Below are positions 14,552-62,273 of a stretch of DNA of 64,000 nt, in pieces; the stretch's first letter is position 1; each line of letters opens with the position of its first letter. Under the pieces are notes generated by a model. That model worked only from the letters and a program-made list of their open reading frames with translations. It made no database searches and was not told where the DNA came from. The position numbers and the translations under genes were made by a program. The stretch is from an uncultured Verrucomicrobiae bacterium (GTDB lineage Bacteria; Verrucomicrobiota; Verrucomicrobiia; Opitutales; JABDGR01), in NCBI GenBank assembly GCA_963765205.1, contig CAVXVB010000009.1, positions 1,152,001 through 1,216,000 on the forward strand, written 5' to 3'.

Positions 14552-17500
14552 ATGACTTCTTCCCAAATTCGCCAGTCGTTCCTCGACTTCTTCCGGTCGA
14601 AGGGCCACACCGTCGTGCCCTCCTCGTCGCTGCTGCCGGACTCGCCGAACCTGCTCTTCACCAACGCGGGCATGAACCAGTTCGTGCCGATCTTCCTCGG
14701 CGAGCGCCGCGCGGACGTCTCGAAATGGGCCGGCGCGACGCCGGGCCTCGACACCCGCGCCGCCGACACGCAGAAGTGCATCCGCGCCGGCGGCAAACAC
14801 AACGATCTCGAGGACGTCGGCCTCGACACCTACCACCACACGTTTTTCGAAATGCTCGGCAACTGGTCCTTCGGCGACTATTTCAAAAAGGAGGCCATTG
14901 ACTGGGCTTGGGAATTGATCACCGAAATTTGGAAATTTCCCGCGAACCGGCTCTACGCCACGGTTTATAGCCCCGATAAATCGAAAGGCGACCCCAGCGA
15001 CTTCGACCAGGAGGCCTGGGACGTGTGGGCCGGCCATTTTCGCCGTGCCGGACTCGACCCCAAAATCCATATCGTCAGCGGCAACAAAAAGGACAATTTC
15101 TGGATGATGGGCGACACCGGCCCCTGCGGCCCGTGCAGCGAATTGCATGTGGATTTGACCCCGGCAGGCGACACGCAAGGCGCGCTCGTCAATAAAGGCG
15201 ACGCCCGCTGCATCGAAATCTGGAACCTCGTCTTCATCCAATTCAACGCTAGAATCACCAAGTATAAACGCGAGGAAATTGTCTCGGGTCATTATATCGA
15301 TATTCCAATCGAATGGGCGTTCGACCCATTATCTGCGAAACACGTGGACACCGGCATGGGCTTCGAGCGTGTGACGAGCATCATCCAGGGCACCAAGAAT
15401 TTCACCGATTTCCCAAACGCGAAAATCTCGAACTACGAAACCGACATCTTCCGCCCCATCTTCGACGAAATCGAAAAACTCAGCGGCAAGCAATACACCT
15501 CGACATTACCGCAGCCTGTCTCAGCGCCAGCTTCTCCTTCTTCCTATTCTTCTCCGTCATCTTCCACCACGGAAAAAACCGTCGTTTCTCCCGCCCCCGG
15601 TCATGCGCTCGATTCTTCTGTCCCGGGGAGCGCGACCGTCCCGGTCGCCGCCGTCGGCGTCCCGCCGACGGCACCAGCCGCCCCCGTCCTTTACCACAAG
15701 CGCCGCCTCCCCCACTTCGAACGCCCCTGGTCGAAATACATGGCCACCTTTTCGACCCACGAACGCCGCCCCCTGTCCCCCCGCGCCCGCGATTTGGTTC
15801 TCAAAAGCCTCCTCTTCGGCCATCACCAAAACCGCTACCAAATCTATGTGGCCTGCGTCATGCCCGATCATGTCCATTTGCTTTTCGAACCGCAAATCAA
15901 GGAGCGATCCCAGAATGACAACCCCGTTTTTTGGGGGCTAACGGATATTTTGCATTCCATCAAGTCCTTCACCGCGCACGAAATCAACAAGCTGGAGGGC
16001 GGCAGCGGACAAGTTTGGGAAAATGAATCTTTCGACTGGCAGATTCGCGGCGAGGCGGATTTGTGGGAGAAATTCAAGTATGTCTGTGCAAATCCCGGGA
16101 AGGATGGTTTGGTCAAGGAAGGCGAGGATTACGCGTGGTTGTGGACGCCCGACCAAGCATCTACTGCGCGAGACGCGCAGCAGGGCGACCGGGACGGTCG
16201 CGCTCCCCGGGACGAAGAATTCCCGACCAAGGAACAAATCCAGATTGACGTGGCCTTCCGCGTCATTGCCGACCACATCCGCACCCTGAGTTTCGCCATT
16301 GCGGATGGCATCCTCCCCGGCAACAACGACCGCAATTACGTTCTGCGCCGAATTTTGCGCCGGGCAATAAGTTATGGACGCACTCTCGGGTTCCAAGAAC
16401 CGTTCTTTTATAAATTGGTTAATGTTTTGGCTTCAACAATGGGAAGTGTTTTTCCTGAAATTCGAACTAATCTTACGAAAGTAAAGGATGTGATCTTTAG
16501 CGAAGAAGCGTCGTTTAATAAAACCATCGATCGTGGTTTAGCAATTTTAACTCATGCAACTGAACGTGGATCTCAAATAACTGCTGCGGCTGGTGGTGAA
16601 TATACTTTTCACATTAAAGACCCAAATGGGGTTTCCATAAAAGTCCACGCTGTAAGGCTCGCAAATTTAATCAAAGGCGAAACTAAAAATTGTATAACTG
16701 GAGAATTTGCCTTTCTTCTCTATGACACCTACGGCTTTCCTGTGGATTTGACCGCATTAAAGGCTCGTGAACGTGGTTTGCTTGTCGATTTCGAGGGATT
16801 TAACATTTGCATGGAAATGCAGCGCGCCCGCGCGCGCGCCGCGCAGAAAAAGACCGTCATCGAACTTTCCCAAATCGAAGCCAAGACGCCGACGCATTTT
16901 CTGGGCTATGACCACAATCACATCGGCGCGGATGTGCAGGAGGTCGTGGTGGTGAAGGACAAGACGGTCGTAGTCGTGAACAATTCCGTTTGCTATGCGG
17001 AGATGGGCGGGCAGGCGGGCGACACGGGCGAACTGGAAAGTTCCGGCCACCATTGGCGCATCACCAACACGCAAAAATCCGGCGCAACCTGGCTGCATTT
17101 CATCGAGGGCGGCGAAGCTCCGCAGGCGGGCGCGCATGTGACGGTCAAGGTGGACGGCCCCCGCCGCGCCGCCATCGAACGCCACCACACCGTGACGCAC
17201 CTGCTGCACTGGGCGCTGCACGAGGTGGTCAGCCGCGACGCGACGCAGAAGGGTTCCTCCGTCGGGCCGGACAAGTTGACCTTCGACTTCAACAGCGCCG
17301 CGCTGACGCCCGCGCAAATCGCGGAAATCGAAAAACTCGTCAACGCCCGCGTGCGCGAAAACGCGCCGGTCTCATGGGGCGATTTCCCCTACGCCGACGT
17401 GAAGGGCCGCCCGGAGGTCATGCAGTTTTTCGGCGACAAATACGGCGACGTCGTGCGCGTCGTGCAAATCGGCGGCCACGCCGATAAAGACGCGCACGGC

Positions 17501-18235
17501 AAACTCCACCCGCGCCTCGACGGTTACTCGATGGAATTGTGCGGCGGCACGCATGTGCGCCAAACCGGCGACATCGGCCTCTTCAAAATTCTGCACGAAA
17601 GCGCCATCGCCGCCGGTGTGCGCCGCATCGAGGCCGTCGCGGGCGAAGCCGCGGCAACCGCCGTCGTCCAACTGGCCCAGGAAGCACGCGAACTCGAAAA
17701 GTCGCTCGCCGACCTTGGCGGAAAATTTTCCGGCGCGGCGATTCCCCTCCCCGCCGGCACGCCCGACATTGAAACCGCGCAAGCCCTCGATCAACGCGTG
17801 CGCGACCTCCAGCAAGCCCTCACCGACCAAAAAGCCGCCATCGAAAAATCCCGCCGGGCCGAGCAGCAGAAAAACGCCGCCGGCCTCGCCGACAATCTGG
17901 CCGCCGCAGCCATCGTCAAAGGCGCGCTCAAATTCATCGTGGCCGTGGTGGACGCGCCGCCTGGCAGCCTGCGCGACATCGCCGTGCAGGCGGGCAAAAA
18001 AATCGGCCCCGGCGTCGTTGTCCTCGGCTGCGCGGCGGACGGCAAAACCGGCGTCGTCGCGCTGTGCTCGCCGGAGGCTATTGCCGCGGGCCACGCCGCC
18101 GGGAAAATCGTCGGCGACCTCTGCGCGCGGTTGGGCGGCAAAGGCGGCGGTAAGCCGGACTTCGCCCAAGGCGGCGGCAAGGACGCCGCGCAACTTGACG
18201 CCGTGTTAAAAAACTTTCGTGAACAAATCCGCTAA
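14552..18235 (+). CDS. alaS: Alanine--tRNA ligase with a large in-frame RAYT transposase insertion and smaller inserts
   Basis: LLFTNAGMNQF, HHTFFEMLGNWSFGDYFK, HVDTGMGFER, VIADHIR, LYDTYGFP, HHTVTHLLH/ELCGGTH editing site, GGKGGG DHHA1 end. Confidence 0.95.
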   Translation: MTSSQIRQSFLDFFRSKGHTVVPSSSLLPDSPNLLFTNAGMNQFVPIFLGERRADVSKWAGATPGLDTRAADTQKCIRAGGKHNDLEDVGLDTYHHTFFEMLGNWSFGDYFKKEAIDWAWELITEIWKFPANRLYATVYSPDKSKGDPSDFDQEAWDVWAGHFRRAGLDPKIHIVSGNKKDNFWMMGDTGPCGPCSELHVDLTPAGDTQGALVNKGDARCIEIWNLVFIQFNARITKYKREEIVSGHYIDIPIEWAFDPLSAKHVDTGMGFERVTSIIQGTKNFTDFPNAKISNYETDIFRPIFDEIEKLSGKQYTSTLPQPVSAPASPSSYSSPSSSTTEKTVVSPAPGHALDSSVPGSATVPVAAVGVPPTAPAAPVLYHKRRLPHFERPWSKYMATFSTHERRPLSPRARDLVLKSLLFGHHQNRYQIYVACVMPDHVHLLFEPQIKERSQNDNPVFWGLTDILHSIKSFTAHEINKLEGGSGQVWENESFDWQIRGEADLWEKFKYVCANPGKDGLVKEGEDYAWLWTPDQASTARDAQQGDRDGRAPRDEEFPTKEQIQIDVAFRVIADHIRTLSFAIADGILPGNNDRNYVLRRILRRAISYGRTLGFQEPFFYKLVNVLASTMGSVFPEIRTNLTKVKDVIFSEEASFNKTIDRGLAILTHATERGSQITAAAGGEYTFHIKDPNGVSIKVHAVRLANLIKGETKNCITGEFAFLLYDTYGFPVDLTALKARERGLLVDFEGFNICMEMQRARARAAQKKTVIELSQIEAKTPTHFLGYDHNHIGADVQEVVVVKDKTVVVVNNSVCYAEMGGQAGDTGELESSGHHWRITNTQKSGATWLHFIEGGEAPQAGAHVTVKVDGPRRAAIERHHTVTHLLHWALHEVVSRDATQKGSSVGPDKLTFDFNSAALTPAQIAEIEKLVNARVRENAPVSWGDFPYADVKGRPEVMQFFGDKYGDVVRVVQIGGHADKDAHGKLHPRLDGYSMELCGGTHVRQTGDIGLFKILHESAIAAGVRRIEAVAGEAAATAVVQLAQEARELEKSLADLGGKFSGAAIPLPAGTPDIETAQALDQRVRDLQQALTDQKAAIEKSRRAEQQKNAAGLADNLAAAAIVKGALKFIVAVVDAPPGSLRDIAVQAGKKIGPGVVVLGCAADGKTGVVALCSPEAIAAGHAAGKIVGDLCARLGGKGGGKPDFAQGGGKDAAQLDAVLKNFREQIR
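15612..16220 (+). mobile_element. REP-flanked RAYT (Y1/HUH tyrosine transposase) module embedded in frame in alaS
   Basis: Perfect 30-bp inverted repeat (15620-15649 / 16184-16213) with internal REP-like palindromes. It encloses RRLPH...ATFST...CVMPDHVHLL...IKSFTA...VWENESFD...YVCANP...W. Confidence 0.88.
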
Positions 18236-18239
18236 ATCC

Positions 18240-18515
18240 ATGACCTCCGCCGAAAAAGCCGCCTGGCGCGCCCGCGCGCAAACGCTCAAGCCCGCTGTGA
18301 AAGTCGGCCGCAGCGGCGTCACCCCTGCCTTGGTCAAGGAACTCGATCTCGCCCTCCGGCGCATGGAGCTGGTCAAGGTGCGCTTTTCCGAAGGCCGCGA
18401 CCTCCTGCGCGACCAGTGCGCCGAACTCGCCGCGGCGACCCAATCAGACTGCGTCGGCGGCCTCGGCCATGTGGCGTCCTTCCACCGACCTTTGGCCACC
18501 AAGAAGCTGGGTTAG
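18240..18515 (+). CDS. yhbY: YhbY/CRM-domain RNA-binding protein
   Basis: RARAQTLKPAVKVGRSGVT...ELVKVRF. Confidence 0.85.
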   Translation: MTSAEKAAWRARAQTLKPAVKVGRSGVTPALVKELDLALRRMELVKVRFSEGRDLLRDQCAELAAATQSDCVGGLGHVASFHRPLATKKLG

Positions 18516-45211: not shown

Positions 45212-45463
45212 TTACAACCATTTTTCGTATTCCCGGTGTGCTCCCACCCAAAACCAGCGAAAGGTTTCGCCTTCCAGAGTGGCCAGCGCGCGGTAGTCCC
45301 TCCCGATGCGCACCGACCAATAAGCGCCAACCTTTTTAAATTGGAGCGATGGATGGCGGGGATTGGCCTGCCAAAGCGCGAAATTCTTGAACGCGAGTTC
45401 TTGAATTTCGACCGGCAACGCGGCCAGAGCCTCACGAAACGCGGCGCTGACGGAGGAATTCAT
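45212..45463 (-). CDS. RelE/ParE-like toxin
   Basis: LPVEIQELAFKNFALWQANPRHPSLQFKKVG..WSVRIGRDYRALA...WFWVGAHREY. Confidence 0.8.
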   Translation of the reverse strand: MNSSVSAAFREALAALPVEIQELAFKNFALWQANPRHPSLQFKKVGAYWSVRIGRDYRALATLEGETFRWFWVGAHREYEKWL

Positions 45464-45662
45464 CGAGGGGCTGATCCAGTTGGCCGGCGCTTTGGTCCTG
45501 GGCACGCTGATAAAGGGCATCCAACCGGCCCGACTTCGCGTCCGCCGCGAGTTGCCGGTCAAAGTCGGTTTCCCGCTGGTGGTCGAACCAGACGGCCAGC
45601 GACTCGAAATCGTATTTCGGCAGTTTCAAGATCGCGGCTTCGATTTCCTGCACGGTGCTCAT
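45432..45662 (-). CDS. Putative antitoxin
   Basis: MSTVQEIEAAILKLP...DRQLAADAKSGRLDAL; overlaps the toxin start. Confidence 0.75.
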   Translation of the reverse strand: MSTVQEIEAAILKLPKYDFESLAVWFDHQRETDFDRQLAADAKSGRLDALYQRAQDQSAGQLDQPLDEFLRQRRVS

Positions 45663-45706
45663 GGCGGCATGATGGCCCAAGGCGGCTTAAATTTCAAGCT
45701 GCATTC

Positions 45707-47354: not shown

Positions 47355-48056
47355 TCAAAGCACCCTCTCCCATGTAAACCGGAGCGGATTGACGGGGTTG
47401 GGAAACCCGGCGGCCTGTTTTTGCTCGTAGAGCGCGCTGTTGCGGGTTTTGTCGCGCAAGCGGCCATGCGTGTGCGCATCCGGGATGAAATTGGGCGACA
47501 CCACGCGGATGATGACATCGTTGCGCGGGATTTTGCGCGCGACCCGCCGCAAGCGGTTGTAATAATCCGTTTCCTCCCGGCCATAATGCCCGGCATAGTC
47601 TTCATCGTAGCCGCCGATTTCGAGATATTTGCTTTTATGAAACAGCAGGTTGACAATGCCAGGACGCGCTTCAGCCTGGCTGCCCAGCCAGATGCGTTTG
47701 GGCAGGTAGAAGGCCTCGCGCTGCAAGGGCGCGCCGGCGAACAGTTGGTGGGCGTCCTCCGGGCAGAGCAAGGTGTCAATATCGGAGACGTAAATCCAGC
47801 CGCGGGCGTGGTGGCAGCCGAGATTGCGCGCGCCGGCGAAATTCCAGGGAATGTCCTCCTGGATGCGGAAGACCTGGATGGGCACGCGGCATTTGGTCTG
47901 GCGGACAATGTCCGCGGCGCGGGTGTGGGGACTACCGTCATCAATGAGCAAAATGTGCGGCAGAGTTTTCATCGCGGCGGGGTAGGCATTCCAACAATCC
48001 AACTGCAAGCGCAGCATTTGCGGATTGTCGTAGTAGAGAAAGACAAGATTGATCAT
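47355..48056 (-). CDS. GT-A glycosyltransferase (GT2/GT7-like)
   Basis: LIDDGS, WNFAGARNLG, SDID, GGYDEDYAGHYGREETD. Confidence 0.85.
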   Translation of the reverse strand: MINLVFLYYDNPQMLRLQLDCWNAYPAAMKTLPHILLIDDGSPHTRAADIVRQTKCRVPIQVFRIQEDIPWNFAGARNLGCHHARGWIYVSDIDTLLCPEDAHQLFAGAPLQREAFYLPKRIWLGSQAEARPGIVNLLFHKSKYLEIGGYDEDYAGHYGREETDYYNRLRRVARKIPRNDVIIRVVSPNFIPDAHTHGRLRDKTRNSALYEQKQAAGFPNPVNPLRFTWERVL

Positions 48057-48084
48057 GACAGTCCCGGGGAGGAAGGCAGCGGGC

Positions 48085-48759
48085 TTACCGGGGCCGGGAG
48101 CGCGGGCCGAGGTGGCCCCGGCGGAAGAAGTGGGGATTATTCGACACCGTGCCTGGTAGAAAAGCATACGAGAGGCCCAATTGACGGGCGACGTAATTAA
48201 AACTGAGCTGGTCGCGGCGCGAGTGGGCCTTGATTTCCGCATACCAAGCTTCGTTGAAACGGCGGATGGCCGGGGTATGCCGCCGCAGCAGGATGGTGCA
48301 CTCCACCAAGCCATTCCTTGGGGGATAACCCGCCTCAAAATACTTCTGCATTTGCCGGTCAATTATTTCGCGCCGGTCCAGCCGCTTGTGCAGGCAATAC
48401 CTGGCTTCCTCGTAGATGCAGGCGCGGTTGGGATGCTTGAAAACCGCCAGGTCGTGCTCGCGGAGGTAGGCGGCGGCCCATTGTTCGAGCGGGAGGGTGG
48501 ACGTGATCACGATGGAGCCGTCAATCCACAGGCTGTATTCGGCCTTCGGAAAATACTCGTGCGGCAGCAATTTGTGGATTTTGGCGTTGCGGCAGGGATC
48601 GCGAAAGCGGTGGTAAAGCGGACGGATGGCCCAGCCCGGCGCGGGCCGCGCGCCGTCCGCAAACGCGACAAAATCCGCCGCCCCCTGCCAGAGGGGCGGC
48701 GGGCTCTGCAAGGCGTCGTAGCCCCGGGTAATGGCGGTATACACCACAAAGTTGCTCAT
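48085..48759 (-). CDS. DUF616 (TOD1/MUCI70-like) glycosyltransferase domain protein
   Basis: VVYTAITRGYD, KLLPHEYF, SLWIDG, HPNRACIYEE, RRDQLSF. Confidence 0.85.
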   Translation of the reverse strand: MSNFVVYTAITRGYDALQSPPPLWQGAADFVAFADGARPAPGWAIRPLYHRFRDPCRNAKIHKLLPHEYFPKAEYSLWIDGSIVITSTLPLEQWAAAYLREHDLAVFKHPNRACIYEEARYCLHKRLDRREIIDRQMQKYFEAGYPPRNGLVECTILLRRHTPAIRRFNEAWYAEIKAHSRRDQLSFNYVARQLGLSYAFLPGTVSNNPHFFRRGHLGPRSRPR

Positions 48760-48775
48760 GGGCGGGAGGCGGGAA

Positions 48776-49654
48776 TCACAACGAGTTGAATAATATTCTA
48801 TATTTTTCAGCAATGCCATCAATGTGGAACCGGCGCGCCCGCCGGAGGCAGCACCGGCGGAGTTCGCGATACAGGTCGTCGTCCTGCTGGAGGGCGCGCA
48901 CCCAGCGGGGACAATCGCGAAGAGTGGAAAAGATTGTGCAGTTCGCGCCCATTTCGTGGTAGGCCGGCTCGTCGCTGGAAATAGAGGGGATGCCGAAGCC
49001 GATGCAATTAATGAGCTTGATGCCGGAGTTGATGGCAATATGGAAGTCAAACTGGTCGCGCACCCGGCGCCAGCGCAATTTCCCCGCCGGCCGGGGCGCC
49101 TGGGCGCGGAGCAGCTTGCGCCCGCGCAGATTCAGCCCGATGCCGGTTTGGCGGAAAATCTTGACAACATCCTCGCGGGTGAGGCCGCCGATAAAATGGG
49201 TGTCGTGGGCAAACCCGCGCAGACTCGGGAGCCAGTGGCGCGAACCCAGCCAGACGGGCCGCCGGAGGTCCGGGGGATTGGGCCGCCCTTCAAAGTTGCA
49301 ATGATGGTGCGGAATGACTTCAACGCGGCCATAGTCATCAAACAATTCCTGCGTGAGGGAATTGCTGGCGACATACACGGCCACATCTTCCCGTGGTGGA
49401 AAGGCATCAATGATGTCCCAGACGACCTGGCCACGCCGGGCCAGTTGGCGCAGTTCCTTCGCGCGGAGGCGCGGCTTGACGCAGACGAACACGGTATACC
49501 GGTCGGGAATGGCCGCCGCAGTTCCCGCATCCAAGAGAAAATCGCAGCCGAGGCGTTGGGCCAGGTCCACACAACGAATTTGCACGCTGGCGAACCGGGC
49601 GGCGTCGCCACCGAGAAAAACCACTTTGGAGAAATCCATAGGCACCAGACTCAT
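48776..49654 (-). CDS. Hypothetical protein, probable glycosyltransferase
   Basis: WDIID, SGIKLINCIGFGIPSI (GT-B-like C-terminus); cluster context. Confidence 0.55.
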   Translation of the reverse strand: MSLVPMDFSKVVFLGGDAARFASVQIRCVDLAQRLGCDFLLDAGTAAAIPDRYTVFVCVKPRLRAKELRQLARRGQVVWDIIDAFPPREDVAVYVASNSLTQELFDDYGRVEVIPHHHCNFEGRPNPPDLRRPVWLGSRHWLPSLRGFAHDTHFIGGLTREDVVKIFRQTGIGLNLRGRKLLRAQAPRPAGKLRWRRVRDQFDFHIAINSGIKLINCIGFGIPSISSDEPAYHEMGANCTIFSTLRDCPRWVRALQQDDDLYRELRRCCLRRARRFHIDGIAEKYRILFNSL

Positions 49655-49901: not shown

Positions 49902-50183
49902 TTACGCATCCAATCGGCGCTGAATCATATTCATAAAACCGGGGGAAAGAACCCCTTTTAATTTTGTTTGGGAAAGTTTCCGCCAGTCCTTGGCCAGAAG
50001 TTTCCAATGGGGCTCCATATTAGCGCCGGAGTTGCGCGGCCCGGTGCTCGCAAGCGGCTTTTGCGGATTGACCGTGGTCGCAGCCGACTTGGTCAAATTC
50101 AAGGTCTGGGCCACCGGCAGGGCCGCGGCGGCCACACCCAGACCGAACAAAAATTTACGGCGCGATGCTTGGCTGTTTTTCAT
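49902..50183 (-). CDS. Small protein with twin-arginine signal peptide
   Basis: SRRKFL followed by a hydrophobic stretch. Confidence 0.55.
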   Translation of the reverse strand: MKNSQASRRKFLFGLGVAAAALPVAQTLNLTKSAATTVNPQKPLASTGPRNSGANMEPHWKLLAKDWRKLSQTKLKGVLSPGFMNMIQRRLDA

Positions 50184-50234: not shown

Positions 50235-50849
50235 TTATTGGTAAAAAGTGAACGCTTTCTTGCTGGTGGTCTTCACTTGGTAAGTCCCATTCGTTTTGAA
50301 CAGGGACTGCGCGTTCTTGGCAAACTTGGGCGCGCGGTATTTGATGTTGTAGGTGTTGTTCTTCAGCGTGGCTTGGGCGATTTGAACTCCGGAGAAGGCG
50401 GCCCGCAGTAAACGGTCGCCAGGGGCGGCGCGGCTGCCAAAACGGGCGTTGGATGCCCCGCCGGCAAAGCTGCCATTTCTTGACGTTGCGCAAACCGGGC
50501 TGCCATCTTTCCAAAAGGTGACCACGCCACTTCCGGGGGTGATGGAGATTTCCAAATGCACCGGGGTGCCTGCTTGATAGGCCCACGAAGTGTGACCCTC
50601 CAAGGGCAGGGTCGAGGCAGCCACAATCTGAAACCCGCTCGCGGGGCTGTTCGTAATCAAAAAGGCGCAATTGTCACTGCCGGAGGACGAATGCAACTGC
50701 AGATACACCGCTTGGGAGTTTTGCACGGTTTGCACTGAACCGCTCAGAGCCATGGCGGAAACGTCATGGGCCTCCAGCCAGCGCTTGGGGGACTTCGGAA
50801 CACGCTTGGGGGAAACAGTCTTGGTAACGGATTGACGCCGGGTTTTCAT
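50235..50849 (-). CDS. Hypothetical protein: conserved basic leader plus beta-rich domain
   Basis: N-terminus MKTRRQSV...KRWLEAHDVSAMALSGS shared with the upstream ORF. Confidence 0.65.
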   Translation of the reverse strand: MKTRRQSVTKTVSPKRVPKSPKRWLEAHDVSAMALSGSVQTVQNSQAVYLQLHSSSGSDNCAFLITNSPASGFQIVAASTLPLEGHTSWAYQAGTPVHLEISITPGSGVVTFWKDGSPVCATSRNGSFAGGASNARFGSRAAPGDRLLRAAFSGVQIAQATLKNNTYNIKYRAPKFAKNAQSLFKTNGTYQVKTTSKKAFTFYQ

Positions 50850-50904
50850 AGGTAATGGGTGCTTGGGTGGGTCGAAAAGGATAATCGCGAGAGGGAAGCG
50901 CAAG

Positions 50905-51099
50905 TTAATTAGCCTGCACGTAGGCGCCGATGCCCATGATGTCTCCGGAGTTATCCGTCAGTTCAATGCTGCCCCCGTTGTTATCCGAGCCGTCGAGGGC
51001 CATCTCGGAAATGTCAATGGAATCCAGCCAGCGCTTGGTGAACTTCCGCACGCGCTTTTTGGAAAGGGATTTCGAAACTGGTTTACGCCGGGTTTTCAT
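50905..51099 (-). CDS. 64-aa peptide with the same basic leader (candidate precursor peptide)
   Basis: MKTRRKPV...KRWLDSIDISEMALDGS followed by a 26-aa tail. Confidence 0.6.
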   Translation of the reverse strand: MKTRRKPVSKSLSKKRVRKFTKRWLDSIDISEMALDGSDNNGGSIELTDNSGDIMGIGAYVQAN

Positions 51100-51259
51100 G
51101 GGTGATGATTGCAGGGGTGGGTTGAAATACTTATCGCCAAGTATGGCGATCGCTTAAGCAAAGTCAAGCGGACAAATGGTGAAAAAGTTTTGTAAGTAGA
51201 AATATTACGCTGCTAAGATGAGTCTGTTTTTGCCCGGTAAAATGCCGAATCTGGGGTCT

Positions 51260-52300
51260 TTACCTGGACCGAAACCGGGAGTGCATGGCGAGGCGTTTGG
51301 CTTCCGCAAGTTTTTTGAGCGCTTCGTCCGTGCTCGTGGCGGTAATTTCCCAAACGGGCCATAGCGAAGCTGCTTTCACGAGGTGGGGCGTCGCCGCGGG
51401 ATGCCAGACGGTGCAATACAAAGTGGGGTCGGCGGCGAGTTCCCATTGCATGACCTTAATCCATTCGCGCAGTTTTTCCCGCCGGGCTGCGGGATCGTGC
51501 GTGGTCTCGGCAAACACCTGGTTCAATTTGTCATCAAGATTGCTGCCACGCCCGCCGCCGCGCCCAAAACACCAACCTTGCCGTGCCAGGGCGAAGGCAA
51601 CCCGCGCGGGGGCATGAAGGTTGATCACCACCAGGTCGGGTCCCGGCGGATTCCAAAATTTTCGCGGCAAGGCCAAGCCGAAAATATCGGAGGTTCCACG
51701 CTCCTGGCCAACGAGAAAAAATTGCGGGGCATACACCCGGTGCGCGAGCTGCAGGTCCGGGTCGCGGCCCATGATCCAGTCTAAGTAAGTTGCGCCATTA
51801 AATTTTCCGCCGCGGGCCAGCCGCCGGACAAGTTTGCGCAGGTAGGGGCCGCGCACGGCGTAACAGTGGGTGCGTTCGCAATCGGTGCAGCGGTAAACCC
51901 CCGGCTGCACGAGGGTGGGCTTGCCATGCAAATTAACATGCTGGCCGCCCAGCATGAGTTGATCCCAATCATCCGGCACGGCGCGCAAAAACTTCCGGAC
52001 CGCCGCAGGAAAGTTATCGGCAAAGCAGACGTCATCTTCGAGGATCAAAATGTTTTTCACCTGGTCGGCGAGGGCTTTGTTCAAAACCAGTTGGTGCGAT
52101 TTCAGACAGGCCCAACTGGCGGCATTGTGGGGCCACCGGGGAGGCGGACGCCGGACGTGGCCATCCACCGCCGCGAATATTTCGGGAGCTTGAAAGGGCC
52201 ACCGACAGGCGAGCAACGCGCGCCGGACCTGGGCAAGCCGGTCGGGCCGTCTTTTCAAGTTGATTAACACCACCCGGTCGAAATAGTGCCGCAAGTTCAT
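51260..52300 (-). CDS. Glycosyltransferase family 25-like protein
   Basis: INLKRRPDRL, ACLKSH, ILILEDDV, THCYAV. Confidence 0.85.
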   Translation of the reverse strand: MNLRHYFDRVVLINLKRRPDRLAQVRRALLACRWPFQAPEIFAAVDGHVRRPPPRWPHNAASWACLKSHQLVLNKALADQVKNILILEDDVCFADNFPAAVRKFLRAVPDDWDQLMLGGQHVNLHGKPTLVQPGVYRCTDCERTHCYAVRGPYLRKLVRRLARGGKFNGATYLDWIMGRDPDLQLAHRVYAPQFFLVGQERGTSDIFGLALPRKFWNPPGPDLVVINLHAPARVAFALARQGWCFGRGGGRGSNLDDKLNQVFAETTHDPAARREKLREWIKVMQWELAADPTLYCTVWHPAATPHLVKAASLWPVWEITATSTDEALKKLAEAKRLAMHSRFRSR

Positions 52301-53395
52301 GGCGAATTCCAGGGCGGGCCGCAGTCCTGCACGCCATCTATCAAACCCAGCCCATAGGCGTCCACCGCGGGCAGCGTATGCTCACCCGCTAATAATTCGT
52401 GGCACAGGACAAAGGCAAAATACCACAGGACCCGTAAATAGGGTTTGGTGGATTGCAACAGGAACACCCGTGCGGCCCTGGGATTTTCAAGACGCATCCG
52501 TTCGTAAACCGCGTGTTCGGTTTCGGCAAAAAAGTCGCCGCGGAAGGTTTTGGCCAGGTCATGCACCACCGCCGGGTGCTGGTTGTGGGTGAGGTTGTGC
52601 AGGAGAAGGAAATCCATCATCAGCTCCGCCAGGCCGTGAGCGGTTCCCGCCCGGCTGACCCAGCCGGCGTCCCGCGTCACAAAATCCAAAGCGGCTTTGC
52701 AGACGACGGCGTCCAGAGCCGCCCGATCGGCTGGGTCTTTGGGTGGCCGGCGCAATGGCAAGAGCGAGGCCACCGCGAAAATTAACCGCCAGCGGGCGAA
52801 CGTCACTTCCAGCAGTTTCCTGGACGCAGTCGCAGTCAACTGCCGGCCAACCTCCGCGAGATGGCGTTGCAAAAATTCCGCAGGTTCCGCCCGTGGGGCG
52901 CTTTCCGCCCTGCGCAGCCCGCTCCGTTCCACGATCCGGCCCAGCACCCGTTCCGCCAGCATCCAGGCCAGTCGCCGATTTTCCCGGTCCAGCCGCAGGG
53001 CCAGGGTCAGCGCCTTTTCCCGGTTGAAGGCCTGAATCTTTTTCAGGCGCGGGTATCGCACGCCGTGAAAATGCAAATGGGCGTTCTTGCGCGCATAGGC
53101 CCGGTGCCCAATGACCAGCAGGCACGCGGCCGCGCTATGCGCGCACTGGGCGAAGGTGATGATTTTCGGCACCGGCCGCGTCCGGTGGGACCGGCGCCAA
53201 CAATTGCCTGAGCCGGTAAAACGCCTCCAATTCGCCGCCGCCGCAATTGATTGAGATCACCAGGGGGTAAGCCTGCCGCTTCAGCAAAGGCCTGATTTTA
53301 GCAGCCAGCCGGATGGCCGCCGGCTTGGTCAACGGCCCATGAACCTGGATCGGCGACGGTGCGGTGATGAGGCGCTGCGGGTGGGGTTTCGGCAT
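52297..53395 (-). CDS. Atypical ClpP/crotonase-fold protease with helical insertion, apparent frameshift at ~53170
   Basis: ISINCGGGE; AHSAAA (Ser); HFHG (His); C-terminal PAVDAYGLGLIDGV. Confidence 0.65.
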
Positions 53396-53596
53396 GGAAG
53401 GCCGGAGAAAATTTATTCGCCAGACGCACACAGGATACCGCCCGCCATCCCGGGCACCAAGGCAAAAAAATCTTGCTTCCGCATCACAGTCACCGGAAGA
53501 CGCGACGGGAAAACCTTGACCGGCCGGCCCCGCTCTTGCTCTATTGGCCATGGGTTGCTTAGGGAGCGCACCGACCAGCCCCGCGCAGCCCGAACC

Positions 53597-54226
53597 ATGA
53601 ATATTTCCCGCCAGTATCGTTTCATTTTCATCCATTGCCAAAAAACCGCCGGCCGGAGCATGGATCTCTATTTGAAAAAAAACGTGCCCGATTTACGCCA
53701 AATGCTGCCCCGCCACGCTTACACCGTGGACGGCATCCAGAAACTCGGCCGCCCGCGCTGGGACAACTTTTACTCCTTTGGTTTTGTGCGCAACCCCTGG
53801 GCCCGCCTGGTCTCCTGGTATTGCATGATCATGGAAAGCCCCACGGACGAAGGGGGCAAATTTTGGCGGTATGTCCGGGACCACGCCACGACTTTTGAGG
53901 AATTCCTGACAAAATGCCAGCAGCCCGTGGTCGAAACCAAGGGAAAATTTCGTTACGCGAAAAGCCTGGTCCGCAACCAACTGGACTATTTCACGGATGA
54001 GCACGGCAAGGTCGCGGTCAATTTTATCGGGCGCTTTGAAGCGCTGGACCGGGATTTCGCCCGCGTCCAGCAGCAGCTGGGCCTGCCGCCCGGCCCGCTC
54101 CCGAAAGTTAATGTCGGGCGCCCGAAAGACTACCAAAGCTTTTACACTCGGCGGACGCGGGCGCTGGTAGCCAAGCGATTCCAACGCGACATTGATTTTT
54201 TTGGATACACCTTTGATGACGCTTGA
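53597..54226 (+). CDS. Sulfotransferase family 2 protein
   Basis: FIHCQKTAGRS (5'-PSB), FVRNPWARLVSWY (3'-PB), IGRFE, DIDFFGY. Confidence 0.88.
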   Translation: MNISRQYRFIFIHCQKTAGRSMDLYLKKNVPDLRQMLPRHAYTVDGIQKLGRPRWDNFYSFGFVRNPWARLVSWYCMIMESPTDEGGKFWRYVRDHATTFEEFLTKCQQPVVETKGKFRYAKSLVRNQLDYFTDEHGKVAVNFIGRFEALDRDFARVQQQLGLPPGPLPKVNVGRPKDYQSFYTRRTRALVAKRFQRDIDFFGYTFDDA

Positions 54227-54251
54227 AGGCCGCCGAAATTCTTTTTTGATC

Positions 54252-54893
54252 ATGCTCGCCTGGAAGCCAACGCCCTTCATCTTCATCCACATTCCCCGGT
54301 GTGGCGGGACCAGCGTGGAGCAGGCGCTCATCCCGCGAACCACGCTGGCGCAGTCCTGGCAGGAACTCTCCCGGGTGGAGCGGTCGCGGCACTGGCTCCA
54401 TGGGAGCCGCGGCCGGCAGCACTCGAAACTGTTGGAGATGGCGAAGTATCTCCGTCTGGGCGAGTATTTCAAATTCACTTTTGTGCGCAATCCCTGGGCC
54501 CGGGCTGTGTCGCAAATTGAATTTCTGCGCGCCGGCAGCGCCCGCACGCTGTTGCCCGGCCAGACCTTCAAGGAAAACCTCCGCATTTATTGTGCAAGCA
54601 AGCAATGCCGGTATGGCCACGATCTGGCCGCCTGCCAATTTGAGTATTTGCAGGATAATAAAGGCGGCTTGTGCATGGACTTTGTGGGGCGGTTTGAGTT
54701 GTTGGAAAGTGATTTTCGCAAGGCCTGCCGCATCATCGGCCTGCGGCCCATTCCGGCGTTGCCGCACACCAACAATTCCCACCGGCGGCGGCACTACAGC
54801 ACTTATTACGACGAGGAGTCGGCGGAATGGATTCGCGAGCGTTTTGCGAAGGATATCGAGCATTTCGGATATAAATTCAGAAAGGAATCTTAA
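54252..54893 (+). CDS. Sulfotransferase family 2 protein
   Basis: FIHIPRCGGTS, FVRNPWARAVS, VGRFE, DIEHFGY. Confidence 0.88.
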   Translation: MLAWKPTPFIFIHIPRCGGTSVEQALIPRTTLAQSWQELSRVERSRHWLHGSRGRQHSKLLEMAKYLRLGEYFKFTFVRNPWARAVSQIEFLRAGSARTLLPGQTFKENLRIYCASKQCRYGHDLAACQFEYLQDNKGGLCMDFVGRFELLESDFRKACRIIGLRPIPALPHTNNSHRRRHYSTYYDEESAEWIRERFAKDIEHFGYKFRKES

Positions 54894-55017
54894 CACCGTC
54901 CAAACAACAACCGCGAATCGCCCAAAACCTTGCATAAATGAGCCGCCCTGCCTATATCTTTGACAAAGCCACCCACCGGCCTCACCTTGCCTGCGTCCCG
55001 GCTGGGGCCGGGCCGTC

Positions 55018-55890
55018 ATGATCTACCTTCTGGGCGGTGCGGGATATGTTGGCCAGGCGTATCAAAAATTGCTGCGCGAAAAAGGCGTGCCCTTCGCCAG
55101 CCTCACCCGCGCCGAAGTGGACTACACCCAACCCGCCGTCCTGCTCGCCGCCCTGCGCGCCGGCCGCCCGGAATTTCTCATCAACGCCGCCGGCTTCACC
55201 GGCCAGCCGACCGTGGACGCCTGCGAGCTGCACAAGACGGAGTGCCTGGCCGCCAACGCCGTGCTACCGGGGCGCATCGCGGAGGCCTGTGCGGCGGCGG
55301 GTATTCCGTGGGCGCATATTTCCTCCGGGTGTATTTATGCGGGCGCGCGCCCGGATGGCGCGGGCTTTACCGAGGAAGACATGCCCAACTTCACTTTCCG
55401 GGCCGGTCCGTGCTCGTTCTATAGTGGAACCAAGGCCCTGGGCGAAGAAGTGTTGGCCGGCCAGCCCAACATTTATATATGGCGCCTGCGGATGCCGTTT
55501 GACCAGCTCGACCATCCGCGCAATTATCTGAGCAAACTCATGCGCTATTCCCGGCTGCTGTCCGTGACGAACTCGCTGTCTGAACGACAGGAATTTGCCG
55601 CCGCCACCTGGGCCTGTTGGGAACGGCGCCTGCCCTTCGGCACTTATAACGTTACCAATCCCGGCCGTGTAACCACTCCGGAAGTCGTCGAGCTGATCCA
55701 GCGCAGCGGTGTCTGCCCGAAGGAGTTTGCTTATTTCGACAGCGAGGAGGAGTTCAGGCGGGTCGCGGCCAAAACACCCCGCTCGCATTGTGTGCTCGAT
55801 TCCTCGAAACTGGCTCGCGCCGGCATCCGATTGACGGAAGTTCACGAAGCCATCGCGCGCGACCTGCGCCAATGGCAAAAGGCAGCCTGA
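55018..55890 (+). CDS. RmlD-family NDP-sugar reductase, resembling bifunctional NRS/ER 3,5-epimerase/4-reductase
   Basis: GGAGYVG, NAAGFTGQPTVDACE, FTEEDMPNF...SFYSGTK, RLRMP, PRNYLSK. Confidence 0.8.
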   Translation: MIYLLGGAGYVGQAYQKLLREKGVPFASLTRAEVDYTQPAVLLAALRAGRPEFLINAAGFTGQPTVDACELHKTECLAANAVLPGRIAEACAAAGIPWAHISSGCIYAGARPDGAGFTEEDMPNFTFRAGPCSFYSGTKALGEEVLAGQPNIYIWRLRMPFDQLDHPRNYLSKLMRYSRLLSVTNSLSERQEFAAATWACWERRLPFGTYNVTNPGRVTTPEVVELIQRSGVCPKEFAYFDSEEEFRRVAAKTPRSHCVLDSSKLARAGIRLTEVHEAIARDLRQWQKAA

Positions 55891-55903
55891 CCATCCTGCG
55901 ACC

Positions 55904-56980
55904 ATGAACCTGCTTGTCACCGGCGGCTGCGGCTTTATCGGCAGCAACTTTATCCGCCAGCGCCTGGCGGAGAAAGATTCGTCGTTACAACGGTTAGTGA
56001 ACCTCGACCTGCTCACTTACGCCGGCAACCTAGCCAACCTGGCCGATGTGGCTGCCGACCCGCGCTATGTTTTTGTCCATGGCGATATTGGCGATAGTGC
56101 GCTGGTGGGGGAATTGCTGAAGCAGCAGCGTATCAAAGCCATCGTCCAATTTGCCGCCGAGTCGCATGTGGATCGTTCCATTGATTCGCCCGAGCCGTTT
56201 GCGCAGACCAACGTGCTGGGGTCGTTGCGCCTGCTCGACGCGGCCAGGAGCTATTGGCGCGGTCTCGGTGAAGCGGAAAAAAAATCGTTTCGCTTCCTCC
56301 ACATTTCAACCGATGAAGTGTTTGGCGATTTGCCGGAAGGCAGCCTGCCCGCCACGGAAGCATCGCCCTACGCGCCCAATTCACCCTACGCCGCCTCGAA
56401 AGCCGCCAGCGACCACCTTGTGCGCGCGTATGGGCGAACCTACCAATTGCCCGTGCTCACGATTAATTCGACCAACAATTTTGGCCCGTTTCAATTTCCG
56501 GAAAAACTCATTCCGCTGGTCATCCTCAACGCGCTCGAAAACAAGCCCATTCCGGTTTATGGCGACGGCCAGCAGGTGCGCGACTGGATTTATGTCGAGG
56601 ATCATTGCGCCGCCATCTGGCGCGTGTTGCGCGAGGGTAAAATTGGCGAAACTTACAATGTCAGCGCGGGCCAGACACTCGCCAATCTGAACGTAGTCCG
56701 CCAGGTTTGCGCGCTGCTTGACGCCCGCGCCCCGCGCAAGGACGGCCGGAGTTATTTCAAGCAAATCACCTTTGTCGCCGACCGGCCCGGCCACGACCGC
56801 CGCTACGCCCTGGACGCCGCTAAAATCCGCCGCGCACTCGGTTGGGCGCCGGTCGAATCGTTCGCCACCGGCCTCGCCAAGACTGTCGAGTGGTATTTGA
56901 CGAACCGCCCCTGGTGCGATGAAATCACCCAGCGCAAATACGCGCGTGCGCGTCTGGGCGCGCCCCCCTCCTCCCCATGA
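55904..56980 (+). CDS. rfbB: dTDP-glucose 4,6-dehydratase
   Basis: [40 protein letters not shown]. Confidence 0.95.
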
Positions 56981-57855
56981 AGCGCAAAGGCATCATCCTC
57001 GCCGGCGGCTCCGGCACCCGCTTGTTTCCGCTCACCCAGGCGGTTTCCAAGCAACTCATGCCTGTCTATGACAAGCCGATGATTTATTACCCGCTCTCGG
57101 TGCTCATGCTGGCCGGCATTCGGGAAATTCTCGTCATCACGACCCCGGCCGACCGACTACTCTTCGAGCGCCTGCTGGGTGACGGCGGGCAATTCGGCCT
57201 CCGGCTTAGTTACGCGGAGCAACCCGAGCCCGGAGGCCTGGCGCAGGCTTTCCTCATCGGGGCGGATTTTCTTGGCGCGGCCCCGTCCGCGCTCATCCTC
57301 GGCGACAATCTCTTCTACGGCCACGATTTCGTGAAATCGCTGCGGGCCGCCGACACCAATGCCCGCGGTGCAACCATCTTTGGCTACCACGTCGCCAACC
57401 CCTCCGCCTATGGCGTCGTCGAGTTCGGCGCCAACGGCGCGGTGCGATCCCTCGATGAAAAGCCCACCCAGCCGAAATCCCAATATGCCGTCCCCGGGCT
57501 GTATTTTTATGACCGCGACGCCGTCCGCCTCGCCCGCCAATTAAAACCGTCTAAACGCGGCGAACTCGAAATCACCGACTTGAACCGGCTGTATCTGGAG
57601 CGGGGAAAATTGCGGGTCGAGTTGCTGGGGCGGGGCACCGCGTGGCTCGACACCGGCACGCCCGACTCCCTGCTCGACGCCGCGCAATTCGTCCAAGTCC
57701 TCGAACAGCGCCAGGGCCTGAAGATCGCCTGCCTGGAGGAAATCGCCTTCCGCCAAAAATGGATCACCCGCGCCCAGTTGGAACAGCAAATCACCCGCCA
57801 CGGCCACTCTGCCTATGGTGGCTATTTGCGCGGGTTGCTCGATACATCACGCTGA
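56977..57855 (+). CDS. rfbA: Glucose-1-phosphate thymidylyltransferase
   Basis: [42 protein letters not shown]. Confidence 0.96.
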
Positions 57856-58493
57856 ATTAGCTGCCCCGTCTTCAGCAGCCGGTTGCGCAGGGGCTGATAG
57901 GGCAAATCCAGAAACTTCAGGATTTTCCGGGCGTATTTTTTCGGTAGTTCATTCACCTGCGCGTTGCCGGTCAGTTCCTCGTAGCGGAGGGTAAGCAGGT
58001 CGGGGTGCGCGGCGAGGAGCCTGGTGTGTTTTTGCTGCTCGACGATAATTTTGCGCAAGCGGTCCGGATTGACCTCGAAGGGGCGGTTGGGGGGCGGGAC
58101 ATCGCCGAGTTGATAATGCGCCTTGCACTGCGCGCCGTAAAACTTCCGGTTGGCGCGGCGCTGGCCGCAACTGCGCGCGACCTGCTCCGGGTCGCGCAGC
58201 AAGTGGATGGTTTTGAAATTGAAAATCGAGCCGCACAGTTGCTCGAATGTTTCGATTTGGGAATACATCACGATGGCGGTGTTGAGCAAGCCGGGCCGGT
58301 TGGCGAAGATGCCGTCGCGCCGGTGCCGGGTGCACAGTGCGCGGTTGCCGGCGTGTAATTGATAGCGATGCACGCATTCGCCTCGCCCGTGGACGAGGGG
58401 ATGGCTGCCGAGGGACGCCTCCAAAAAATGCGTGCCACTGCGCTGGTAGCTCACAATGAGGACATCGGGCGGGTCAAAAATTTTTGACGGCAT
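57822..58493 (-). CDS. Sulfotransferase (Stf0-like P-loop family)
   Basis: [17 protein letters not shown]...S, LRYEEL. Confidence 0.75.
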
Positions 58494-61232: not shown

Positions 61233-61310
61233 CCGCGCTTACTCCCCGCGCGCCCGCGCCGACCAGCCTAATTCCGGCCCCAACACCATTTTTTGCCCGA
61301 CTGCGCATCC

Positions 61311-62273
61311 ATGCCCGGCGACCCGCCCGCCACTCCGCCACCCCTTTCCGCCAGTGTGCCGCACCTGGAGGCGTTTCTCGATGAATTGCGCGGCGAGCGG
61401 CGCCTTTCCCCAAACACCGCGCGCAATTACGCGCAAGCCGTGCGCGGATTCTTTCTCTGGCTGCGGCAAAGCGAAGGCCGCGCCTTGGCCCCCGCGCAGG
61501 TGACGCGCCTGCACGCGCGCGGCTTCGTCATCGAAAGCCAGCGACGGCTCGACCGCCGGACGGTGCATTTGCATGTTTCAGCCCTGCGCGCGTTTTGGAA
61601 ATTTCTCCTGCGGCGCGGGCAGGTGCCGGCCAGCCCGTGGGTTGGGCTGGTGCTGCCGAAACTTCCGAAAAAATTGCCGCTGTTCCTGACCGAGGAACAG
61701 ATGCGCACACTCCTCGCCATTCCCGCACGCCTCGCGGAAAACCAGACCGGTGAAGGCGGCGTGAGGGAACGCGCCTTCGCAGTGAGCCGCGACTGCGTCA
61801 TGCTCGAAGTCTTATACGGCGCGGGCCTGCGCGTGAGCGAACTGGCCGGCCTCACCTGGGGCCAACTTGATTTGGACGATGGCGTCGCGCGTGTGCGCGG
61901 CAAAGGCAACAAGGAGCGCCTGTGTCCCCTCGGCGCGATGGCGGTCGAGGCCCTGCGCGCGCACCGCGCCACTTTCATGCCTGCCGCGGCTTTCAACGCG
62001 CCGGTGTTCACGGATAAAAAAGGCCGGGGCGTCTATCCCCGCTGGGTGCAATTGCGCCTGAAAATGTTTTTGAAGCTCGCCGGGTTGCCGCTCGATTTAT
62101 CGCCGCACAAACTCCGCCATTCCTTTGCCACGCATTTATTGAACAGCGGCGCGGACCTGCGGGCCGTGCAGGAGATGCTCGGCCACGCGCGCCTCTCGAC
62201 CACGCAAATTTACACCCACGTCGGCATCGCCCGCCTCCAGGAAGCGCACCGCCAGGCGCATCCGCGGGCATAA
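61311..62273 (+). CDS. xerC: Tyrosine recombinase XerC/XerD family
   Basis: LYGAGLRVSEL, GKGNKER, SPHKLRHSFATHLL, LGHARLSTTQIYTH. Confidence 0.88.
   Translation: MPGDPPATPPPLSASVPHLEAFLDELRGERRLSPNTARNYAQAVRGFFLWLRQSEGRALAPAQVTRLHARGFVIESQRRLDRRTVHLHVSALRAFWKFLLRRGQVPASPWVGLVLPKLPKKLPLFLTEEQMRTLLAIPARLAENQTGEGGVRERAFAVSRDCVMLEVLYGAGLRVSELAGLTWGQLDLDDGVARVRGKGNKERLCPLGAMAVEALRAHRATFMPAAAFNAPVFTDKKGRGVYPRWVQLRLKMFLKLAGLPLDLSPHKLRHSFATHLLNSGADLRAVQEMLGHARLSTTQIYTHVGIARLQEAHRQAHPRA

Follow-up and report, generated by a model that had tools for sequence, protein, structure and literature searches.

In the Streptomyces MelC1-MelC2 pair, MelC1 has a role in translocation by the twin-arginine (Tat) route, and the known Tat carriers are folded cofactor subunits or metallochaperones. 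Double-glycine-leader RiPP precursors and glycocins join a constant leader to a variable, often Cys-rich C-terminal part and often have glycosyltransferases nearby. The KxYKxGKxW extended signal peptides of glycosylated serine-rich proteins also lie near glycosyltransferases and begin with a basic segment that ends in Trp. Hitchhiker export through Tat is established for HybOC and PaoABC, and in these systems a small twin-arginine subunit stands beside signal-less partners (sections of PMC4273604), as a putative one does at the locus described here.

We analysed a gene cassette in an uncultured Verrucomicrobiae bacterium of the order Opitutales, contained in a 64,000-nt stretch of one contig (the window; Table 1). 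With moderate confidence, we read it as a cassette for hitchhiker export through Tat: a carrier of minimal size would lend its signal to a peptidase-fold scaffold, and a leader would dock a variable module in cis or in trans. So read, the cassette is like known Tat hitchhiking in how it works, with an unusual architecture: its carrier has only about 50-65 mature residues, and the cassette differs from known hitchhikers in its predicted peptidase-fold partner and in a separate leader-bearing variable gene. The twin-arginine protein also recalls the formate-dehydrogenase-region Tat target TIGR02811, likewise small and mostly Tat signal, but the match to the window's 93-aa protein (24.5 bits) is far below the 48.45 cut-off and covers only the N-terminal 43 residues, and the gene context is different.

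The leader and its cargo share with RiPP precursors and glycocins the constant leader, the variable and often Cys-rich part and the frequent glycosyltransferase neighbours; unlike in those systems, the leader is strongly basic, a conserved GG/GA/GS is missing, the cargo reaches 280 aa and no maturase is constant. The leader also resembles the KxYKxGKxW peptides, being an N-terminal stretch of basic character that closes with a conserved Trp and is encoded near glycosyltransferases, but no hydrophobic region follows it and it has no NCBIfam match. In the open-access literature searched, no description of the cassette was found.

Tandem ORFs and the direct repeat

Table 1. Positions of features in the window and, where a locus handle is given, at related loci.
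Feature	Sequence	Positions	Strand	Remarks
Short ORF, 64 aa	window	50905..51099	-	intact leader (50986-51099) and 26-aa tail
Long ORF, 204 aa from ATG	window	50235..50849	-	partly decayed second leader (50736-50849) and 166-aa remainder, predicted beta-sandwich
141-nt direct repeat, copy 1	window	50987..51127		28 nt of upstream region and leader codons
141-nt direct repeat, copy 2	window	50737..50877		74% identical to copy 1
Twin-arginine protein, 93 aa	window	49902..50183	-	S-R-R-x-F-L; 51 nt downstream of long ORF; proposed Tat signal donor
Promoter-like site	window	51140-51167
GT25 glycosyltransferase	window	51260..52300	-	160 nt upstream of short ORF; host glycan island, outside cassette core
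ClpP-like gene	window	52297..53641	-	two frames in window; CLP_protease in homologues
GT-like (Glyco_trans_1_2), DUF616/TOD1 and GT2-like genes	window	47355..49654	-	downstream of cassette
Sulfotransferase and rmlD/B/A-like genes	window	53339..58493		same island
Two small adjacent ORFs	window	45212-45680	-	toxin-antitoxin-like by eye
Tyrosine recombinase	window	61293-62273	+	Phage_integrase, 143 bits
Leader ORF, short tail	L023	1426-1623	-
Leader ORF, short tail	L058	6895-7062	-
Leader fused to acidic domain	L036	5832-6428	-
Leader fused to acidic domain	L037	5316-5846	+
Helical-repeat gene	L034	1102-4728
Helical-repeat gene	L034	10348-12663
Helical-repeat gene	L037	6182-8578
Helical-repeat protein	L056	14389-14859		after a small secreted-looking Cys-containing gene
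Cys-cluster protein	L034	522-1085	-
Cys-cluster protein	L008	6208-6771	-
Cys-cluster protein	L061	12886-13920	+	longer
Two genes flanking the fused-leader cassette (by eye)	L034 (G001)	15396-18446
Leaderless domain and twin-arginine pair	L066	168-5256		apparent mobile element (by eye)

The preliminary description of this DNA had pointed to two tandem ORFs with a common basic leader as candidate precursors of a peptide-modification system. A recount confirmed its figure of 23 identities over residues 1-38 of the short and long ORFs; over the next 26 residues there are 0 of 26. The leaders lie in a 141-nt direct repeat whose copies are 250 nt apart, each beginning 28 nt above its ATG, and the upstream likeness, earlier put at about 40 bp, holds for these 28 nt and is patchy beyond them towards 40 nt. 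The likeness between the leaders is far above chance. In the 4.0-Mb, 92%-complete genome (G000), the leader pair reaches a tblastn E of 6e-10 against 0.002 for the next-best match, and a leader profile finds two copies (iE 1.6e-16 and 1.1e-12; next match 2.1); no third copy was found there. The two copies differ at codon position 1 in 11, position 2 in 6 and position 3 in 13 of the 38 codons. Neither leader has a hydrophobic core, as had been noted before: the best 13-residue hydropathies are 0.53 and 0.33, and the longest uncharged runs 9 and 3 residues.

An assembly error does not appear to explain the division into two ORFs. In sequencing run X1, possibly the source sample, one contig spans 50044-50969 with 0 differences from the window, and a 151-nt record from run X3, another sample of the same study, covers 50859-51009, also with 0 differences; contigs of both runs agree fully with the window over the short ORF's stop codon and the spacer that follows. 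The short and long ORFs are 55 nt apart, on one strand with the twin-arginine gene. The sole promoter-like site is at chance level (1 against 1.3 expected), and an EndoS_helical Pfam match on the short ORF (18.8 bits, cut-off 26) was taken as chance.

Relation of the two ORFs to fused relatives

A homologue search among 190 candidates gave five proteins, the query included. Two of these, P0004 and P0005, have no leader and start with a G-A-Y-V strand that resembles the end of the short ORF, and four others (P0006, P0024, P0027 and P0028) carry the leader, the G-A-Y-V strand and the whole domain in a single chain. In an alignment to the fused relatives, the short ORF is the N-terminal part, and the domain of the long ORF begins where the short ORF ends. 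Against a profile of these six proteins, with the window proteins left out, the 26-aa tail of the short ORF aligns with positions 18-37 at a weak 7.1 bits that 0 of 2000 shuffles equalled, and the long-ORF domain aligns with positions 48-194 at 131 bits, colinear with the tail and without overlap. In pairwise comparisons, the number of shuffles reaching the score of the tail (of 2000) was 21 for P0004 and P0005, 118 for P0024 and 223-1328 for the other three, so that the pairwise match is not significant for three of the six relatives.

What the tail matches is one or two beta-strands at the start of the sandwich. Since it matches the first strands of the domain in the fused relatives, the two ORFs look like complementary halves, and by these alignments they are most likely the halves of one beta-sandwich protein. 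The statement that the ORFs diverge completely after the leader needs correcting, since the domain section missing from the long ORF has its homologue in the tail of the short ORF; equally, the short ORF is hardly a variable core peptide, its tail being most likely an N-terminal piece of the sandwich. A duplication of the start region and leader may have split an ancestral fused gene, after which the short ORF would supply the leader and first strands and the long ORF the remainder, with the halves presumably reassembling. Aspergilloglutamic peptidase (AGP), naturally a two-chain enzyme according to parts of PMC8147669, offers a precedent for first strands on a separate chain; the window protein is split at the gene level, whereas AGP becomes two chains by proteolysis. 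The AGP heavy chain aligns with residues 38-193 of the domain model described below.

Both ORFs have orthologues. That of the short ORF, P0015, is identical at 59 of 64 residues and has the same stop. In P0002, the counterpart of the long ORF, the domain is kept at 133 of 166 residues and the leader at 23 of 38, with the W-L pair lost; in the long-ORF leader itself, prolines replace the conserved K-F-S/T-K stretch. Because both orthologues come from contigs of equal length, 19,936 nt, they probably represent one locus.

The leader family

A constant basic leader on variable cargo, as the preliminary description had proposed, proved to be a real family. We tabulated 21 leader-bearing proteins, of which nine have the leader fused to the beta-domain, six to Cys-rich cores (8-16 Cys in 56-81 aa), two to an acidic domain and two to short basic tails, the remaining two being short ORFs of the window type. 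The leader motif is K-F-S-K-x-W-L-D/E-x-V-K/E-L, with W and L kept in 20 of the 21 proteins; the basic stretch before the Trp carries a charge of +5 to +13, and the leader end is Ser-rich. At the leader end, G-G/S/A occurs in only 6 of the 21, or in 7 of 21 when a wider span is allowed, and the GS/GG/GA ending is not conserved. In the tandem cassettes of locus L063, the leaders are identical at 38 of 40 positions and the cores have diverged.

The family is narrowly distributed. Iterated profiles found 11 leader copies in 4 of 10 genomes of the taxonomic family (two in G000, four each in G001 and G004, one in G006); among GTDB genomes the leader turned up in the genus of the window alone, and it was not found in 400 other genomes of the phylum. 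The beta-domain is present in 4 of 401 genomes of the order and was likewise not found in 400 other genomes of the phylum. A metagenome scan added eight loci, representing six distinct cassettes. A first metagenome scan gave 79 pattern matches and a viral scan 75, with 0 relatives in either, and two further loci that we examined held no new cassette. Against 1.84 billion representatives, phmmer returned six matches, one of them true (P0005); the other five, immunoglobulin-type or low-complexity repeat proteins with summed weak matches, were rejected. We also did not count a weak match in G054 with a stop inside, a weak genome match at G001:C168, or, in G002, a leader match at E 0.047 and two weak twin-arginine matches, where no cassette-like ORF was found. 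Neither leader nor domain matches a Pfam or NCBIfam family above cut-off, and five leader proteins were without an NCBIfam match at E 0.05.

Two of the rarer classes deserve a description. The two leader ORFs with short basic tails, at L023 and L058, have similar Ser/Arg-rich tails, lie at the edge of glycosyltransferase islands and adjoin a tRNA or integrase-like gene, with neither a beta-domain nor a twin-arginine partner. At L036 and L037 the leader is fused to an acidic Cys-containing domain without a family; the pair is 31% identical, and these cassettes have their own twin-arginine subtype.

Gene order and the twin-arginine protein

One partner is constant, a tiny twin-arginine protein, which the preliminary description had omitted from its picture of the locus. 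In the window this 93-aa protein has a 21-residue uncharged run followed by a short basic mature part. It scores 14.8 bits against TIGR01409, below the cut-off of 16.7, which the two homologues scanned pass (26.2 and 20.4 bits); R-R is invariant in all 12 aligned twin-arginine proteins. As in the described hitchhikers, a translocase gene is present (TatC in G000, 169.9 bits, over cut-off), and the adjacent partner is without a signal peptide of its own, its leader having no hydrophobic region.

Counting near-identical loci once (L060 with L061, L062 with the first cassette of L063, L065 with the second), we found 13 distinct cassettes with a twin-arginine gene. Directly upstream of it, 11 of the 13 carry the gene for the beta-domain and two, both in G004, the gene for the acidic domain; for these two, hhalign gave probabilities of 0.5% and 3.2% against the beta-domain, so no link was shown. 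Of the 12 cassettes that could be evaluated, all but L066 have a leader (11 of 12); L067 is cut. A gene for a membrane-anchored helical-repeat protein comes next after 9 of 11 evaluable cassettes and is absent in the window and G006. Judged from sequence and gene order, the conserved unit is a leader gene, the beta-domain and the tiny twin-arginine protein, usually followed by the helical-repeat gene.

The helical-repeat proteins, with W-A-x-x-D-P-x-A-A repeats and no good Pfam or NCBIfam family, have 35 matches in G000, and examples occur at L034 and L037; at L056 one follows a small secreted-looking Cys-containing gene. After the helical-repeat genes of three cassettes lies a 187-aa protein with a C-terminal Cys cluster (longer on L061), which has a weak DUF6171 match and was not found in G000. 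By eye, the fused-leader cassette of L034 is flanked by two genes resembling aspartyl protease plus TPR, and the leaderless pair of L066 sits beside helicase-like and thymidylate-synthase-like genes.

This gene order bears on the possibility that a separate trans factor, the helical-repeat protein or some translocase, reads the leader independently of the pair formed by domain and twin-arginine protein. We consider this unlikely. It would account for the retention of W-L-x-x-V-x-L even in domain fusions, where a tether is unneeded, for the two leader ORFs with neither domain nor twin-arginine gene, and for the frequent helical-repeat neighbour; against it, none of the 35 helical-repeat matches of G000 lies in the window cluster, neither a C39 peptidase nor a phage-sheath family was found in that genome, and most domains are accompanied by one good leader, in cis or in trans.

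The glycan island

The cassette of the window lies in an island of surface-glycan genes. Its ClpP-like gene occupies two frames in the window, but the contig from run X1 differs by one base that restores a single 447-aa frame; the gene is probably intact and its two-frame state an assembly error. Single-copy ClpP-like homologues travel with GT25 in several islands. About 3 kb past the island is a tyrosine recombinase gene that may be housekeeping XerC/D, and two small adjacent ORFs resembling a toxin-antitoxin pair are also present in the window (Table 1).

We considered 15 leader or cassette loci, three of them too short to evaluate. A GT25 orthologue lies within about 6 kb at 6 of the 12 evaluable loci, at three of them within 600 nt, and none was found at the other six in the 11-20 kb fetched (down to 5-6 kb a side). 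At the level of genomes, GT25 is present in 4 of 4 leader-positive and 1 of 6 other genomes of the family (Fisher p 0.048), a test on 10 genomes that are related and partly incomplete. Genome G006 has an almost identically ordered sulfotransferase-ClpP-GT25-GT-DUF616-GT2 operon that holds no cassette and in which 48 nt separate GT25 from the following GT; the G006 cassette is on another contig among unrelated gene neighbours. Islands adjoin tRNA genes at 4 of 12 loci scanned. The link between cassette and island, though real, is an optional one, such as shared mobile islands would give; the enzymes are not tied to the cassette, although they may modify its cargo.

These observations weigh on a RiPP-like interpretation, in which the leader products would be glycosylated or sulfated by the GT25, DUF616, GT2 and sulfotransferase enzymes and the leader cut, perhaps by the ClpP-like peptidase. 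The family does show a constant leader over variable Cys-rich cores, the GT25 linkage just described speaks for it, and so does a ClpP-like gene that is probably intact. We nevertheless hold it to be quite unlikely: the short ORF of the window departs from the pattern, its supposed core being most likely a fragment of the domain; no maturation enzyme is consistently linked, six loci being without one in the sequence fetched and the orthologous G006 operon without a cassette; the double-glycine-type boundary is confined to 6 of 21 proteins; no C39 peptidase (PF03412) was found in the 92%-complete G000; and insertion sites shared by the four islands next to tRNA genes could explain the linkage.

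Predicted fold and complex

To describe the domain we relied on a model of a relative, the L062 domain, which AlphaFold2 predicted from 10 sequences as an all-beta structure (pLDDT 87.6, pTM 0.85). A first AlphaFold model, of P0006, had been discarded (pLDDT 36), and its top matches, to VIA at Z about 5, were not relied on. In a search of 48,161 chains, the best match to the L062 model was neprosin (Z 16.9, rmsd 3.2, 186 residues aligned), followed by YncM (Z 15.2), HC7 (13.3), circularly permuted glucanases (about 12) and the AGP heavy chain (11.7); the top two Foldseek matches were neprosin (E 2.8e-8) and scytalidoglutamic peptidase (6.7e-8). The domain of the relative's subfamily is thus predicted to have the neprosin/eqolisin glutamic-peptidase fold, sharing its two-sheet beta-sandwich topology with neprosin (7zvc), the eqolisins SGP and AGP (2ifr and 1y43), Bacillus subtilis YncM (4hfs) and HC7 (8pmu). 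The subfamily of the window is linked to the modelled one by hhalign (96.9%, E 1.5e-10 over 104 columns, using full-length rows for the window's subfamily), and the A11 profile recovers the window's domain at E 1.6e-4. A PDB profile search with the domain gave one unrelated match (E 0.71) and no solved relative by sequence; a Pfam glutamic-peptidase match was found neither for the window's domain (E 0.01) nor for four homologues (E 0.1). ESM Atlas returned only generic ConA, LamG, DUF6645 and CBM look-alikes (125-158 of 256 shared features) and BFVD only generic jelly-roll matches, all of which were set aside.

Neprosin has catalytic residues E188 and E297, of which only the second Glu is common to eqolisins (passages of PMC9343461). 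In the model, no acidic column conserved in at least 50% of sequences occurs in strands 43-49, 56-64 and 128-138 (A11, 10 rows; A16), the strands mapped to the catalytic ones by strand order and fold topology, without superposition or coordinates; in three fused proteins the strand assigned to E188 does contain a Glu. On the model of the relative, then, the sandwich topology of glutamic peptidases is present and, by this coordinate-free mapping, no conserved Glu-Glu or Gln-Glu catalytic dyad is seen. From the missing conserved acid we infer that the domain is a pseudo-peptidase, its catalysis probably lost.

ESMFold2 predicted a complex between the L062 domain and the mature part of the twin-arginine protein (the L062/L063 pair). 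The pair scored 0.81 in 3 of 3 runs, against 0.04 for the best of three control pairs. Of 157 solved complexes 116 came up to the mark, and of 215 mismatched pairs 2 did so; with the alignments used, both counts are only rough. At least 70% of the contacts are common to the runs and the partner pLDDT is at least 62; as no solved relative was found by sequence, recall of a like complex by the model is less likely. The pairing joins residues 58-64 of the partner to residues 113-119 of the domain, and R64 of the partner is the same in 8 of 8 proteins. Among the 32 residues of the interface are 11 of the 20 domain positions with the highest conservation (p 3.5e-5), an enrichment possibly inflated if the model favours conserved patches. 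Over nine cassettes, the mature twin-arginine part tracks the domain with rho 0.90 (2 of 5000 permutations) and the leader with rho 0.41 (196 of 5000), the cassettes being kin rather than independent, so that shared descent inflates both values. The domain of the relative's subfamily is thus predicted to bind the twin-arginine protein. In the window's domain, E, F and W of the predicted interface are kept and the G-x-D-x-G strand is missing; the twin-arginine protein of the window differs in its mature part from that of the modelled relative.

That the domain is an active, atypical glutamic peptidase, with the basic leader as a latency pro-peptide like the neprosin pro-domain that plugs an acidic cleft, appears to us very unlikely. 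Neprosin and eqolisins are its best structural matches, nine of 21 leaders are fused N-terminally to the domain, and the neprosin pro-domain has a pI of 9.5 and a K118-E188 plug (parts of PMC9343461); these peptidases share with the cassette a basic N-terminal segment. Identity to them is 6-13%, and the domain has no signal peptide of its own. On the mapping above, no conserved catalytic acid is seen in it, and E97, D99, D113 and D117 of the model belong to the interface predicted with the partner.

Discussion

The cassette would be an export unit with three parts, belonging to a single Opitutales genus; in the window it is inserted into an island of surface-glycan genes. The basic leader, attached to a variable module, would be part 1; part 2 would be a sandwich domain with the neprosin/eqolisin fold whose catalysis is probably lost; and part 3 a protein of 75-93 aa that amounts to a twin-arginine signal, a docking strand and little more. 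The starting points of the model, namely the repeat, the gene order of the relatives and the homology, are observed. To them are added the fold and the complex, predicted on a relative: in the cytoplasm, part 3 would attach to part 2 on its back face. The folded complex of parts 2 and 3 would then leave through Tat as a hitchhiker. The leader may act as a docking element or pro-segment, in cis where it is fused and in trans where it is encoded by separate Cys-rich genes, and would bring the variable module along. The membrane helical-repeat protein, usually the product of the next gene, may receive this module. The Cys-rich cores would fit an oxidising destination. An export route, which had been suggested for the two ORFs as leader-directed cargo, fits the evidence, with export itself a step that we infer; the short ORF of the window most likely has no variable cargo core.

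That the window cassette is merely a relic, a tandem duplication having truncated one copy and left its pieces to decay, is very improbable: the prolines in the long-ORF leader, its further decay in P0002 and the missing helical-repeat gene would suit such a history, but both frames are open, the orthologues of short ORF and long-ORF domain are well kept, the former ending at the same stop, and instead of duplicating each other the pieces are complementary.

The hitchhiker cassette might also be more than a carrier for its scaffold. A bolder version, which we put forward tentatively and regard as possible but doubtful, is a modular secretion device in which a signal-donor peptide sits on a dead glutamic-peptidase scaffold that reads the leader and carries interchangeable and hypervariable disulfide-rich proteins through Tat to a cognate membrane helical-repeat receptor, the cargo possibly being glycosylated first by the island.

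The three genes together measure about 1.2 kb, and their known range is narrow, a single genus. They carry the neprosin/eqolisin fold into a probable function other than catalysis, within Verrucomicrobiota, and in the window the fold appears to be split at the gene level near the proteolytic cut of the fungal enzyme. A signal and one docking strand acting as carrier, together with a peptidase-fold scaffold and swappable Cys-rich cargo, would be a new Tat routing for variable proteins, and such a carrier could serve as an export tag. If the bolder version is true, these bacteria would possess a polymorphic surface or effector system together with a portable Tat adaptor for signal-less cargo.
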